Source: a virus (Duplodnaviria > Caudoviricetes). Taken from it: a stretch of 64,000 nucleotides of DNA. The stretch's first letter is position 1, and every line of letters begins with the position of its first letter. Position numbers and translations under genes: made by a program. The notes beneath the pieces were generated by a model, which saw nothing but the letters and a program-made list of their open reading frames with translations, ran no database searches and had not been told where the DNA came from. The DNA is taken from the IMG/VR virus record IMGVR_UViG_3300033068_000943, positions 29,336 to 93,335 of that record; one strand, 5' to 3'. Of this stretch, positions 44,083 through 50,144 are shown one piece after another.

Positions 44083-45363
44083 TTAGAAGCTGATCTTGGT
44101 GCCCAGCATGAACAGCGTCGTATCGCTGCACACACCCAGACACAGCGGCGTCGGCGTGCCGACATCGAGGCGTCGAACCGTCCCGTAAACGTCGAGCGCC
44201 AGCCCGTCGATGGACTGAATTGCGCCAGCCCCGATCACCTTGAGATCGTCGCCGGTCAACTGCTCCATCTTCTGCCACTCAGCGAACAGCGTCGTGGCGC
44301 CCCAGCCCGTCCAATTGCGCTGAATGCCGGCCTGACCACCGTATCCGGTCACACGTTCGGAACCGAGCGACGCAGACACCGACCCGCCGATCAGCGGCAC
44401 GTTGAGCGAGATCACCCCGGTCAGGTCGTAATCGAGACGCGAATAGAACCCCGTCGCGAACAGCCCCGTCTTGGTGTGCATCAGCGATGCCGATCCCGAC
44501 AACGCCTTGTGCGATCCCGTGACATCCAGCGTCAGGATGTTGAGCACGTTCAGCACGTTCGCGAGCGTCTGCGGCTTCTGGTCCCGGTAGCCGATGCCGG
44601 CCGCGAACCGGAATTCGCCGAACTCGGCCGCATAGCGCAGCGCGGCATCCCACGTGTCCGTGTCCGACCACGTGACGGACGCCGTAAACCCGCCAAGGAT
44701 CGGCGTGTCATAGCGCACGACATTGGCCCGGCCGCCGTCATAGGGCAGATTGAGGAACGGCACGGCTCCGCCGAAGTTCAGCGGCATCAGACTCAGAGGC
44801 CGCACGGCGAGATTGGTGTTGGCCGTGCTCAGCTCGATGATGCCATCCGTCGCCATCGACGTGTGACCGACAGACACCGTGCCCAGCACCGTGTCGAGAT
44901 AGACGTAGCTGTGCCGGGTCGTGGTCCCGACCTCGCCGAAAGCCACCTCGTTCTTGCCATCGGGCGAATCGGGGATGGCGATGACCGCATTGCCGGCATC
45001 GATGCCCCGAGCGCTCGGGTTGGCGATGGCAATCTCGATCACGAAACCGGCCCGAGTGTCCTTGCCGATCCGACCTTCGCCCGCGAAGCGGAAGCGCGAC
45101 GGGTCTTGCGTGCCGTCGTAGATCGACAGCTTGTTGGCGCCCGGCAGGTCGTCGTTATCGTGCGACAGAATGCCCTTGTGCACGACGCCGGAGATCGTGA
45201 GCGAAACCTTGCGGTTGCCCTTGCGGGCCACGGTCGCCTCCAACTCAGCAACACGCTCCTCCAGATCTGCGCAGCAGTTGCCGCCTAGATCGGCGGCGCT
45301 GACCAGCGCCGCCGACAGCAGAAGCGCAGCCGTGGCGCCCCCCATAATCCTCATCTGTGTCAT
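44083..45363 (-). CDS. Outer-membrane porin (Hyphomicrobium-type)
   Basis: Signal peptide, ADLGGNCCADLEERVAELEAT.ARKGNRKVSL, VRYDTP, beta-strands, terminal Phe. Confidence 0.85.
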   Translation of the reverse strand: MTQMRIMGGATAALLLSAALVSAADLGGNCCADLEERVAELEATVARKGNRKVSLTISGVVHKGILSHDNDDLPGANKLSIYDGTQDPSRFRFAGEGRIGKDTRAGFVIEIAIANPSARGIDAGNAVIAIPDSPDGKNEVAFGEVGTTTRHSYVYLDTVLGTVSVGHTSMATDGIIELSTANTNLAVRPLSLMPLNFGGAVPFLNLPYDGGRANVVRYDTPILGGFTASVTWSDTDTWDAALRYAAEFGEFRFAAGIGYRDQKPQTLANVLNVLNILTLDVTGSHKALSGSASLMHTKTGLFATGFYSRLDYDLTGVISLNVPLIGGSVSASLGSERVTGYGGQAGIQRNWTGWGATTLFAEWQKMEQLTGDDLKVIGAGAIQSIDGLALDVYGTVRRLDVGTPTPLCLGVCSDTTLFMLGTKISF

Positions 45364-46753: not shown

Positions 46754-46829
46754 TGGCAGCCGCCCTTGGACTCGAACCAAGAGCCGTCGCGCTCAAAACG
46801 CGACACTCTACCCGTTGAGCTAGGCGGCC
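46754..46829 (-). tRNA. tRNA-Gln(TTG)
   Basis: TCGCG-TTTTGAG-CGCGA, G73-CCA. Confidence 0.85.
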
Positions 46830-47012: not shown

Positions 47013-50000
47013 TCAATCGTTTTCCTTGGCGAACAGCGGGAGATCGTTGGGATTGTCCAGATTGTTCTTACTCGCCGCGACGGCTGCCCTCTTCGTTGGC
47101 TGCGTCGCGAGTTCCATCCGGCGCTTGATGTCTTCCTGATATTCAGGCTCGCGCTCGATCAGGATAGCGCGCATGCCTTCGCGCCACGCAGCCTCCCCCG
47201 TAGTGCCGGTCCCGGCAAACGGATCGAGGCAAACGCCAGGGCGCCATTCTAGGCGGTGTCCACAATGCGCACAGGCCGGCTGGTTATGATCTTGCCATGG
47301 CAGTGAGGACAGCACAGCGTGCTTCGCCTCGGCAGATTGAGCTTGTCGTGATCCCCCTTCGCCATCAACTCCAAATTCTCCGGTCGATTGTCGGTCTTGA
47401 CGCCGTTTTTGTGATGCACGACCTCGCCTTTTGTTAAGGGGCGGCCGATTAGCTGCTGCATGACCCACCGATGCTCGAAGACGTAGCCCCTCTGTGAATG
47501 GGATTGCGGATGATCCGGCATCCATAAGAGACGATAACCCTTGTTGCTGATCACAAAGCCCTTGGTGTTCTTCCTGTACTTTCCCGTCCACTTCGCCGCA
47601 CACGACCGACTGCAACATCGCCGCGCCCCATCCTTCCGAGGCTGGAATATTGTTCCGCACCAATCGCACGGTTTCGGTTTCAAGCCCTTGTTTGCCGCCG
47701 CACATTGTCGGCTGCAGAACCTGCCCGTGTGTTGATTGTCCCTCGGTTTGAAGTCCACTAGGCACCACGCACACTGGCGTATTGGAACTGGCCTTCTCGG
47801 TGCTATTTTTCGCATGGGTTGCGGCCTCGCAATTCGGACACGCCAACACCCTTTTGGGAGTCACTAGGCGGACCAGCCACTGCATGAGATCAAGGGGCTT
47901 GACTGTCGGATGCTTGGACCCGAGGCGATCATCTGCATCCGCCTTCGACGTGTAAAAGAATCGAGCCGCCGAAGCGCCGTCTGATCTGCGCATCCCCGGC
48001 AGTGCTGCGAAATCGGTCCCGCCGTTCTCGGTGTAGCGCCGATCGGCTGATGCCTCGCCATCGCGACGGGCTTTGCCTGGGGCTCTGCTCGCGTATTTTC
48101 CGTAAGTATTGTCGGTTGTACCGGATGGCTCCGTTCCCTTCACATCGCCTTGCTGTCCGGGGCTATCGGGGAAACAAGCCAGAACCTCGGGCGACCCATC
48201 GTGGCACAGATTAGCCGGCCAGCGGCCGAGATCGGTCGTGCCAGCGGCTTTGCTTCCGCCGTCCAGGCCCTTGCCAAGCCCGCCCGCACCCGTGCGGCCC
48301 GCATAGACGTTCCCGTCTGTCGGCTTCGCGTCGAGTTCGCGGAGGGGGCGGGCATCCGCCTCGATGCGACACCCGTCGATATTCAGGGCGCCCGTGCCAT
48401 GCTTGATGACATTCTCTGCCACGGTTCCGATCAGAGGTTTGCGAGCGACGCAGATCGGCTCCCAGGATGGTTTCAACGCAGTGCCCCAGCCGTCCCATTG
48501 TTTGGCGGCGTCAGTGGCGGGGATTTCTCTGCCGGGTTGGTAAGTGCGGCCGTCATCCTTGACCCAACTCCCGGAGATGTTCTGATCGGCGCCCGGGATC
48601 ATGCGCTTAACGGGAGCACCTACGGCAATCTTTTGGCGCTCGACGCCAGCGGCCTTGTCTATCCCCTTCGACACGTCATGGCTTTTCGGAAAGCCTGAAT
48701 TGCCAGTTGGGAACGCCATGCCGTCTCGAACGGCAACGAATGCCCCCGTGCGCACCGTCACGCACCAGATCACGCCGTCGTAATGCTCTGGAGTGATCCG
48801 TACCACAACGGATCTATGGCCCGGCCATGCTCGAACAGCTTGTGATCCCTGTTCGTCGAGAACAACATGAGATTGGTCGGACAGTTGTTTCGTGGATTGT
48901 GATCGATGTGATGAACCGACTCGGCTCGCGTCAGAAGGCGCCCAAGAATGCTCGCGACGACCAAGCGGTGTTCCATGACGTAGCCGTCCCGCCGTGACAT
49001 CGCCAGAAACTTCGGCGGACACCTCACACACTTCGGGCCAACATAGTTCCCGCGAGATCGAACGTATGTGACGCCACCCTTCCAGGAGGGATTGGACGGC
49101 CCAGTGAACCGCGCGACTAGCGCCGCCTCCGACTCCGGTCGCCACGCTGCCCGGCCCTTGTGCGCGTGCTTGGCCCATTCCGCCCCGCGCAATGCGCCGT
49201 TGCATTCGCGCGAGCAAACCGGGGTTCGGACCTTGCGCCGCCACGCTTGCGGTATCGTCTTTTCCTTTCCGCAAATCCCACATGCCACAGTCACGCGCCG
49301 ATTGAGGGGAGACGGCCGCCCTGCTGCCTTCGATCCAATCAGCGCATTCTTGCACACCTTCGAGCATGTTCGATTGCGCGTTGCCTGCTCCTTGGTCATG
49401 GCCGCGAAGGGCGACAAGCAGTGCTGGCAAGTTTTCCAGAACGGGTACACGCGCCTCGCGTTGCCGTGCAGCGTCCTCCGCGAACTCGAATGTTTCTTCT
49501 CCGCCTCGTTCAATGAGGCAGCGATGATTTCGGGAGACAACTTGCTCTCCATGAGGCGTTGTAATTCGATACATGGTGTCGCTGATTTGGTAGCGATGGA
49601 CATGCTCGACAGTTCCCCATTGATAGGTCTTTCGGGCTGAGTCGTATGTGAGGATTGTATCGCCCGCTTTCAACTCAGAATGATGCGAGAGGCCGCATGG
49701 TGTAACTGCCTGCGTGCAGTCATCGAGGCACCCGTAGGCCCAGCCAATCTGGTCCCTGATCTCAAACCCCGCATCCTCGATAGCGCACGCCATCCGGTGA
49801 TAGGTGCGCGTTCCCGAGAAGGCGACGACGTGCCCGCCGGGCTTGAGCACGCGCAGCACTTCGGCCCAGAACTCGACCGCAAACGCCGTCTCGCCGGTAT
49901 CCCATTGCTTGCCCATAAACCCGCCGCCAAGGCGGGTGTAAGCGCCACCCATGCCATCGGCCTTGGCGGGCGCCGCTCCAGCCTTGCCGAACCGCTTGAC

Positions 50001-50144
50001 GATGGAGACGAGCGCATAGGGCGGATCGGTGACGACGGAGTCGATGGAGTTGTCAGGAATTGAGCGCAGCACGTCCCGGCAATCGCCGGGGCGCAAAATC
50101 ACCTTCCCATCGAGAAATTTCACCTCATCTTCGCTCCCCATCAA
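47013..50144 (-). CDS. DNA amino-methyltransferase (N4/N6, beta class) with an intein and a second insertion
   Basis: VTDPPY near the N-terminus; HPTVKP and DPFAGTGTT near the C-terminus. Confidence 0.9.
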   Translation of the reverse strand: MMGSEDEVKFLDGKVILRPGDCRDVLRSIPDNSIDSVVTDPPYALVSIVKRFGKAGAAPAKADGMGGAYTRLGGGFMGKQWDTGETAFAVEFWAEVLRVLKPGGHVVAFSGTRTYHRMACAIEDAGFEIRDQIGWAYGCLDDCTQAVTPCGLSHHSELKAGDTILTYDSARKTYQWGTVEHVHRYQISDTMYRITTPHGEQVVSRNHRCLIERGGEETFEFAEDAARQREARVPVLENLPALLVALRGHDQGAGNAQSNMLEGVQECADWIEGSRAAVSPQSARDCGMWDLRKGKDDTASVAAQGPNPGLLARMQRRIARGGMGQARAQGPGSVATGVGGGASRAVHWAVQSLLEGWRHIRSISRELCWPEVCEVSAEVSGDVTAGRLRHGTPLGRREHSWAPSDASRVGSSHRSQSTKQLSDQSHVVLDEQGSQAVRAWPGHRSVVVRITPEHYDGVIWCVTVRTGAFVAVRDGMAFPTGNSGFPKSHDVSKGIDKAAGVERQKIAVGAPVKRMIPGADQNISGSWVKDDGRTYQPGREIPATDAAKQWDGWGTALKPSWEPICVARKPLIGTVAENVIKHGTGALNIDGCRIEADARPLRELDAKPTDGNVYAGRTGAGGLGKGLDGGSKAAGTTDLGRWPANLCHDGSPEVLACFPDSPGQQGDVKGTEPSGTTDNTYGKYASRAPGKARRDGEASADRRYTENGGTDFAALPGMRRSDGASAARFFYTSKADADDRLGSKHPTVKPLDLMQWLVRLVTPKRVLACPNCEAATHAKNSTEKASSNTPVCVVPSGLQTEGQSTHGQVLQPTMCGGKQGLETETVRLVRNNIPASEGWGAAMLQSVVCGEVDGKVQEEHQGLCDQQQGLSSLMDAGSSAIPFTEGLRLRASVGHAAANRPPLNKRRGRASQKRRQDRQSTGEFGVDGEGGSRQAQSAEAKHAVLSSLPWQDHNQPACAHCGHRLEWRPGVCLDPFAGTGTTGEAAWREGMRAILIEREPEYQEDIKRRMELATQPTKRAAVAASKNNLDNPNDLPLFAKEND
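47249..47815 (-). CDS. HNH homing endonuclease nested out of frame in the methyltransferase
   Basis: CxxC..CSxxC repeats; YVFEHRWVM..VVHHKNGVKTDNRPENL. Confidence 0.85.
   Translation of the reverse strand: MRKIAPRRPVPIRQCAWCLVDFKPRDNQHTGRFCSRQCAAANKGLKPKPCDWCGTIFQPRKDGARRCCSRSCAAKWTGKYRKNTKGFVISNKGYRLLWMPDHPQSHSQRGYVFEHRWVMQQLIGRPLTKGEVVHHKNGVKTDNRPENLELMAKGDHDKLNLPRRSTLCCPHCHGKIITSRPVRIVDTA
48699..49730 (-). mobile_element. Intein (344 aa) in the methyltransferase
   Basis: YG|CLDD.. start, block B SRNHR, end YDGVIWCVTV..TGN|SGFPK. Confidence 0.85.
48770..49603 (-). CDS. HNH homing endonuclease nested out of frame within the intein
   Basis: CQHC..CSKVC, CGIC..CSREC, NPSWKGG, YVMEHRLV..VHHIDHNPRNN..NL; start uncertain. 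Confidence 0.85.
   Translation of the reverse strand: MSIATKSATPCIELQRLMESKLSPEIIAASLNEAEKKHSSSRRTLHGNARRVYPFWKTCQHCLSPFAAMTKEQATRNRTCSKVCKNALIGSKAAGRPSPLNRRVTVACGICGKEKTIPQAWRRKVRTPVCSRECNGALRGAEWAKHAHKGRAAWRPESEAALVARFTGPSNPSWKGGVTYVRSRGNYVGPKCVRCPPKFLAMSRRDGYVMEHRLVVASILGRLLTRAESVHHIDHNPRNNCPTNLMLFSTNRDHKLFEHGRAIDPLWYGSLQSITTA

Follow-up and report, generated by a model that had tools for sequence, protein, structure and literature searches.

A phage methylase intein that probably houses an HNH homing-endonuclease gene in an overlapping reading frame

How can one stretch of DNA belong to an intein in one reading frame and encode a nuclease in another? This question is raised by a gene for a phage-type N6/N4 DNA methyltransferase (methylase), located on the minus strand at positions 47013-50144 of a 64,000-nucleotide (nt) stretch, hereafter called the window, which is part of a 93-kb IMG/VR virus record of an uncultured phage (IMGVR_UViG_3300033068_000943, positions 29,336 to 93,335). 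According to the listing of open reading frames (ORFs), the gene encodes 1043 amino acids (aa) in a single uninterrupted frame across two inserts, and its ends match Pfam PF01555 (E 4e-19) and phrog_67 (E 2e-55), i.e., phage N6/N4 DNA methyltransferases. An earlier sequence-only reading had recognized a 344-aa intein in the first insert (48699-49730) and, nested in it on the same strand, an ORF with a zinc finger and an HNH motif (48770-49603, here HNH1). We consider it highly probable that the splicing subdomains of this intein are read in the methylase frame and that the DNA between them constitutes a complete HNH_3 homing-endonuclease gene in frame +1; both splicing and HNH activity are predicted from sequence comparison and structural modeling.

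The limits proposed for the intein proved to be exact. It lies between ..GWAYG and SGFPKS.. of the methylase, with Cys1 as host residue 139 (window position 49730) and the terminal Asn as host residue 482 (48699). The insertion site is conserved and in frame, and intein-free relatives (L011-L013) read ..G/SGFPKS at the site, which is marked here by a slash. Six aligned intein copies, which are 35–40% identical to each other, share C1, S66-R-N-H69 of block B (a Thr/Ser-x-x-His motif), W322-C323 of block F, T342-G343-N344 and the extein Ser at position +1 as invariant residues, the C-terminal Asn thus being directly followed by Ser in all of them. Cys1 was found in all intein copies delimited, although the delimiting pattern itself demanded a Cys. 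The Trp-Cys of block F and the Thr before Gly-Asn resemble two of the three “WCT” residues of class-3 inteins, yet Cys1 is present.

Structural comparison pointed in the same direction. A profile built from the six copies matched the AceL NrdHF intein in the PDB (E 1.8e-6), and the AlphaFold 2 (AF2) model of the intein is confident at residues 1-66 and 310-344, with a predicted local distance difference test score (pLDDT) of 76–86 at residues 1-50 and of less than 30 at residues 110-296. In a comparison of this model with 48,161 PDB representatives, the best 29 of 38 structural matches were all Hint domains of inteins, bacterial intein-like (BIL) proteins or Hedgehog proteins, and the top match was a class-3 intein (6zgq_B, Z 9.2, root-mean-square deviation 2.6 Å across 111 residues).

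Two observations weigh against splicing. The penultimate residue is an invariant Gly343 instead of His, and the Pfam models Hint_2 and Intein_splicing score only 15–17 bits in the intein's own frame, i.e., below their cut-offs of 28–36. Some active inteins are known to lack the penultimate His. Both observations could, however, also speak for a non-splicing insert which is retained as a tolerated loop, like the ShiLan domain of a mycobacteriophage methylase, and whose intein-like ends are relics, especially as this methylase family demonstrably tolerates non-splicing inserts (the second insert of the window; L011-L013; PMC11855218). Such a retained loop nevertheless appears very improbable in view of the invariance of Cys1, the block B Ser and His, the block F Trp-Cys, Thr-Gly-Asn and Ser+1 at so low an overall identity, the clear purifying selection on the host frame, the predicted Hint fold and an allelic form with a LAGLIDADG endonuclease that is a published intein. 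The first insert is a bona fide intein with a predicted Hint fold, for which splicing is predicted as well.

Within the insert, the N-terminal splicing subdomain (49419-49730, minus strand) comprises residues 1 to about 104, up to the VPVLENL strand, and the C-terminal splicing subdomain (48699-48803, minus strand) contains blocks F and G (..VIWCVTV..AFPTGN) and shows a mean column identity of 76% in six loci. The stretch between them (48804-49418, minus strand; residues ~105-309), to which we refer as filler, is stop-free, unconserved and predicted to be disordered in the intein frame, and its DNA codes for the HNH core in frame +1. A Pfam search of the intein's own frame matched no endonuclease family, in agreement with what the sequence-only reading had stated.

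The nested ORF bears out its proposed identity as well. HNH1 (48770-49603, minus strand) encodes 277 aa plus stop, in frame +1 relative to the host, with N-terminal helices, two Cys4 zinc fingers and an HNH_3 catalytic core. It reaches Pfam HNH_3 (PF13392) with 29.2 bits vs. a gathering score of 24.8, the match spanning residues 212-251, and several PHROG HNH families with a best E of 2e-15. An alignment of 34 HNH sequences showed that the eight zinc-binding Cys (C59/62/80/84 and C108/111/130/134) and the HH..H..N..N..H motif are invariant or nearly so, including E228, V230, H231, H232, H235, N240, N244, N251 and H254 of the catalytic core (residues ~228-258; 48830-48922, minus strand). The AF2 model of HNH1 has a mean pLDDT of 87.8, and helices at residues 11-44, which lie over block B of the intein, reach 94–97. 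A point against this assignment is the outcome of a Foldseek comparison of the whole multi-domain model with the PDB, which gave no match at E <= 0.001 and placed I-HmuI only at rank 33.

The ORF of the window could also be an inactive relic that no longer supports homing, so that only the open host frame still matters. Degenerate copies of this kind do exist elsewhere: the HNH frame is broken in L055 and L068, and L050 keeps a mere deletion remnant, with the host frame still open. For the window, we rate this possibility as slight, given that HNH1 is full length, retains all eight zinc-binding Cys and every conserved catalytic residue, and is predicted to adopt a confident fold.

Of special interest is the finding that the host frame remains open throughout the nested ORF. 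For each HNH ORF, host-frame stops were counted after synonymous-codon and codon-order shuffles. Across HNH1, no host-frame stop was observed vs. a mean of 7–8 in the shuffles, none of which was stop-free (0/3000), and the filler holds 0 stops vs. 5–7 expected; the third frame, for comparison, contains eight real stops in HNH1 and likewise in HNH2, the nuclease ORF of the second insert. The open host frame is therefore not due to chance. When the HNH core was compared in 35 unique full-size copies, the host frame contained 0 stops, where synonymous shuffles predicted 305, and the third frame contained 368; the selection of loci could conceal at most two host-frame breaks. As a control, 26 distant HNH relatives were inspected; they are mostly free-standing genes, two being in-frame domains of larger proteins, and none has an alternative frame that is open across the gene, even at guanine-plus-cytosine (GC) contents of 0.55–0.63, and the alternative frames of the HNH genes of L009 and L014-L017 are closed, too. 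The GC content of the window is 0.62 and that at the third codon positions of its HNH ORFs is 0.68–0.72 (0.72 in HNH1). Chance openness in GC-rich DNA is ruled out by the shuffles and by the closed alternative frames of the free-standing relatives.

The arrangement is, moreover, not confined to the window. A search with HNH1 retrieved relatives of 48–56% identity which were again nested in the same relative frame in the same intein. The uncultured 484-kb phage LR756508 has this arrangement as well; this phage was the sole match in the INPHARED set, which contained no cultured phage with a full-length relative of HNH1. A scan of viral and genome collections for the C-terminus of the intein together with the extein gave 58 loci. 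In 46 of them, a fully open intein frame is accompanied in frame +1 by a homologue of the HNH (hmmsearch E <= 1e-56), at GC contents of 0.30–0.67. L094 shows the same layout by eye, and L081, L085 and L099 have the same host-frame filler; L046, L056 and L100 end at contig ends. Five loci (L084, L089, L092, L101 and L102) contain shorter inteins of 277–287 aa with a +1 HNH that lacks zinc finger 1, and the host frame is still open in these. Carriers among prophages include Plastorhodobacter daqingensis and metagenome-assembled genomes of Spirochaetes, Acidobacteriaceae and Aestuariivirga.

This recurrence bears on the possibility that the layout is an artefact, i.e., an in-frame HNH intein split by a pair of sequencing frameshifts that compensate each other, or a frame open by chance in GC-rich DNA. 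Compensating errors had been named in the sequence-only reading as what would refute it, and for metagenome assemblies they have a certain prior plausibility, which is the only point in favor of such an artefact. The same relative frame in at least 46 independent loci over this wide GC range and the lack of any in-frame HNH version of the intein among the 58 loci rule out a sequencing frameshift; together with the stop statistics, they reduce the probability of an artefact of either kind to next to nothing.

Selection in the two frames across homologues, put forward earlier as a way to check the proposal, was measured as nucleotide diversity by codon phase in codon alignments of six and then 35 sequences. 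In the extein and in the N- and C-terminal subdomains of the intein, the third positions of the host frame are the most variable (0.54–0.66 overall and 0.54–0.65 in the N-terminal subdomain), i.e., the host frame is selected in the splicing subdomains. From zinc finger 1 to the end of the HNH, the most variable positions are the third positions of the HNH frame, which are the first positions of the host frame (0.47–0.68), and variability is generally lowest at the second positions of the HNH frame, so that selection acts on the HNH frame in the central ~200 codons. Since host codon position 1 is the most variable one in the filler, only the HNH frame is selected there: the HNH protein alone is conserved in this stretch and the intein frame is merely kept open. 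The suggestion of about 800 nt of dual-coding DNA holds for the overlap of the two ORFs, which amounts to 834 nt, but not for amino-acid constraint, which affects both frames only in the 5'-terminal ~150 nt and in a few tens of nt at the 3' terminus; for the ~620 nt in the center, the host frame simply remains open.

At the 5' side, the two constraints meet in a junction (49427-49453, minus strand) where R-VPVLENL of the host frame lies over V-YPFWKTC of the HNH frame, the start of zinc finger 1, with a GTG at 49448-49450. In this segment, the host frame has P96, L98 and E99 as invariant residues, and the Y, P, F, W and K of the HNH frame hardly vary; 31 of 34 copies, among them AT-rich ones, share the fixed codons TAC and TGG, and diversity is low in all three codon phases. 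Selection is seen on both frames, in separate segments, and stops are kept out of the host frame over its full length. For the HNH, the cost of an open host frame would comprise synonymous choices only, namely the avoidance of T-ending codons before codons starting with AA, AG or GA. These data provide clean evidence that the avoidance of stop codons is a trait on which selection can act in a selfish gene.

That the nested frame is translated, as the sequence-only reading assumed, is supported by the purifying selection on the HNH frame in the 35 unique homologues, the invariant zinc-binding and catalytic residues and the confident model. In 34 of the 35 copies, the HNH frame is free of stops starting ~50 codons ahead of zinc finger 1, and stops are frequent further upstream. 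In the window, an ATG at 49603 is preceded by GGGGAA at a distance of 9–10 nt. Internal initiation is the mode of HNH1 synthesis which we favor over frameshifting. Several findings weigh against it: an ATG occurs at the aligned position in just 18 of the 35 copies, Shine-Dalgarno-like motifs were seen in about half of six copies examined and were weak or absent in the others, and no single conserved start codon could be pinned in the 35 copies. Alternative starts could be a TTG (29/35 copies) or a GTG just before YPFWK (15/35). No sigma-70-like promoter was found inside the methylase gene.

The loosely conserved start and the sparse Shine-Dalgarno-like motifs could alternatively reflect a programmed +1 ribosomal frameshift off the methylase/intein frame, which would give rise to a fusion of N-extein, N-terminal intein part and HNH, and the unusual conservation of the block B region in all three codon phases could be interpreted in the same way. 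We regard this route as unlikely, since +1 frameshifting normally depends on a zero-frame codon that is slow or a stop and no such codon is present, no conserved shifty motif was noticed, and the stops in the HNH frame are common as far as ~50 codons ahead of the zinc finger and disappear from there on, as for an ORF with its own start. Frameshifting by −1 is excluded, because the slip would enter the third frame with its 368 stops over the 35 loci.

With internal initiation as the favored mode, we propose that ribosomes on the methylase mRNA would pass through the HNH gene and produce from it an unstructured filler of ~200 residues, placed at the point where inteins normally have their endonuclease inserted. 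The Hint domain could then fold from its N- and C-terminal parts and splice out, resulting in an active methylase. The HNH would be made separately from the same mRNA, likely from the ATG at 49603 or its equivalent ~50 codons before zinc finger 1, and might cut intein-free methylase alleles of co-infecting phages or prophages, the repair of which would copy intein and HNH into the cut allele (homing). Phage group I introns often carry HNH ORFs, and the insert might for this reason be taken for a group I or II intron that is removed from the RNA. The probability of this appears vanishingly small, as no Rfam intron match was obtained at E <= 1, the host frame is open and the intein residues are conserved at the protein level.

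The distribution of the intein is patchy, which fits homing: the nearest extein, that of L013 (75% identical in the 100 residues preceding the site), lacks the intein, whereas intein-bearing alleles are at most 57% identical. The same site is also occupied by other forms, i.e., inteins with an in-frame LAGLIDADG (L095 and L103) and mini-inteins of ~140–155 aa (L050 with 154 aa, L070 with 141 aa, and L087). The L087 gene has a premature stop at intein codon 7 (..CLSEDS*VLT..) and is either broken or affected by a sequencing error.

The nuclease itself was encountered in further settings. The methylases of L011 (3502-4914), L012 (3103-4902) and L013 (3352-5073) have an empty intein site and, ~15 codons downstream of it, another insert which is non-splicing, bounded by C.C..C and CGRCGKP in the host frame and read through, and which hides a shorter HNH of the HNH1 clade in the same relative frame. 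In L009 (3719-4513), a free-standing HNH with 60% identity to residues 104-264 of HNH1 is located between tail and baseplate genes; it may be either the donor of the cassette found in the intein or a copy that escaped from there. A quick maximum-likelihood tree groups the HNHs of the inteins with those of L009 and L011-L013 in one clade, with a Shimodaira–Hasegawa-like approximate likelihood ratio test (SH-aLRT) support of 96 and an unsupported branching order within the clade; the ShiLan HNH, HNH2 of the window and other HNH_3 genes fall outside.

The invasion of a mini-intein by a free-standing HNH, as suggested in the sequence-only reading, is plausible from these comparisons, as both a free-standing relative (L009) and mini-inteins (L050, L070) exist. 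Against this direction stands the mini-intein of L050, in which the final ~25 codons of the HNH region are still present and frame +1 preserves an R-D-H..F..G remnant; because of this retained 3' remnant, L050 looks like a deletion derivative and not like an ancestor.

On this basis, we tentatively put forward, at somewhat less than even confidence, that the +1 HNH and the methylase intein are an old, co-adapted pair, and that the intein prevails in this form among phages of several bacterial phyla. The N-terminal helices of the HNH would be overprinted on block B, the VPVLE/YPFWK junction would be fixed in both frames, and one HNH clade would move between an intein-borne, a non-splicing read-through (L011-L013) and a free-standing state (L009). 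If true, the pair and the three states of the HNH would amount to a living series of how inteins gain and lose endonucleases.

Inteins with an endonuclease in other frames were first described in 2025, in actinobacteriophages, comprising antisense LAGLIDADG or VSR-like enzymes and, on the same strand, an endonuclease VII-like enzyme in “frame 3” (Gosselin, Arsenault and Gogarten, 2025, bioRxiv 10.1101/2025.01.02.630785). Their hosts are DNA polymerase, minor capsid, terminase and thymidylate synthase genes, with no methylase among them, and HNH endonucleases are reported there only in frame; invasion by free-standing endonucleases was proposed as their origin and evidence of continuing mobility was given (bioRxiv 10.1101/2025.01.02.630785). 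A cyanobacterial dnaX intein with an out-of-frame endonuclease was added in a 2026 preprint (bioRxiv 10.64898/2026.09.14.751524). Like the non-canonical actinobacteriophage inteins, the first insert of the window has its nuclease ORF in the endonuclease region and in another frame, with the intein frame uninterrupted; it differs from them by a nuclease of the HNH_3 type with two zinc fingers in frame +1, by its methylase host and by its occurrence in phages and prophages of non-actinobacterial hosts.

Within the methylase family, two elements of mycobacteriophage gp65 are closest to the first insert. The ShiLan domain is a non-splicing insert that hides an out-of-frame HNH (frame 3) (Gosselin et al., 2023, PMC9957025; Arsenault, Gosselin and Gogarten, 2025, PMC11855218). 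It shares with our insert the methylase family, an HNH_3 nuclease with zinc fingers (a distant homologue of ~32% identity) and a host frame that is stop-free through the nuclease gene, but it has no splicing domains, is thought to stay in the protein and is located at a different site. Furthermore, the ShiLan HNH (L018) is in frame +2 of its host, whereas both HNHs of the window and all intein-borne copies are in frame +1, which means that the stop-free “carrier” frame differs between the two lineages. The second element is the published gp65 intein of ShiLan and Dorothy, which has an in-frame LAGLIDADG (PMC9957025). It occupies the identical site (..W.YG/CL.. to ..TGN/SGFPKS) with homologous splicing domains, the C-terminal 35 aa being 60% identical to the window intein (E 1e-9) and the N-terminal 71 aa 25% (E 2e-4); at 327 aa with a canonical endonuclease in frame, it is nonetheless of a different type.

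A further parallel is the mobE gene, which reportedly is nested in the nrd genes of phage Aeh1 (Gibb and Edgell, 2007). As in the case proposed here, an HNH gene is said to be embedded in a host gene and expressed from within; unlike there, where the host gene is reportedly split into separately translated pieces, the methylase would be read through and repaired by protein splicing.

Full-text literature searches yielded no report of an out-of-frame HNH inside an intein. The first insert is thus a new combination within a known kind, since publications of 2025–26 cover out-of-frame endonucleases in inteins as well as hidden HNHs in methylases of this family, but not the two together. It adds a large cross-phylum family of at least 46 loci to inteins with a separate overlapping nuclease gene, which are still a rarity in the literature, and as an intermediate form it links two published oddities of the methylase, the canonical LAGLIDADG intein and the non-splicing hidden HNH of ShiLan. 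The family also offers natural material for “splicing-first” models of intein origin and for studies on the translation of overlapping internal genes. For annotation, it implies that such inteins pass as endonuclease-free with unexplained inserts unless all frames are read.

The methylase gene of the window hosts a second hidden nuclease, and the claim of two independent nested HNHs in one gene is upheld. The second insert (47238-47852, minus strand) is non-splicing, bounded by CPNC and CAHC in the host frame and located near the C-terminal S-adenosylmethionine (AdoMet) motif; it fits the description of the ShiLan domain, which the first insert, having splicing domains, does not. Its HNH2 ORF (47249-47815, minus strand) encodes 188 aa in frame +1, scores 45 bits with Pfam HNH_3, is just 35% identical to HNH1 and lies outside the HNH1 clade. 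The host frame contains 0 stops across HNH2 vs. ~8 expected, and 0/3000 shuffles were stop-free. The Cys pairs occupy positions at which constraint on the HNH frame is lowest, since CPNC precedes the HNH2 start and CAHC overlaps HNH2 in its C-terminal tail only. The HNH2 ATG has a GAGG 9 nt upstream. Viral contigs contained no close relatives of HNH2, only distant HNH genes, two of which belong to larger proteins and most of which are free-standing.

The minus strand carries a tRNA gene immediately downstream of the methylase gene (46757-46829; Rfam 59.5 bits). A 426-aa ORF at 44083-45363 (minus strand) has a signal-peptide-like N-terminus and the look of an alphaproteobacterial porin; it may mark host DNA or represent a phage-borne porin.

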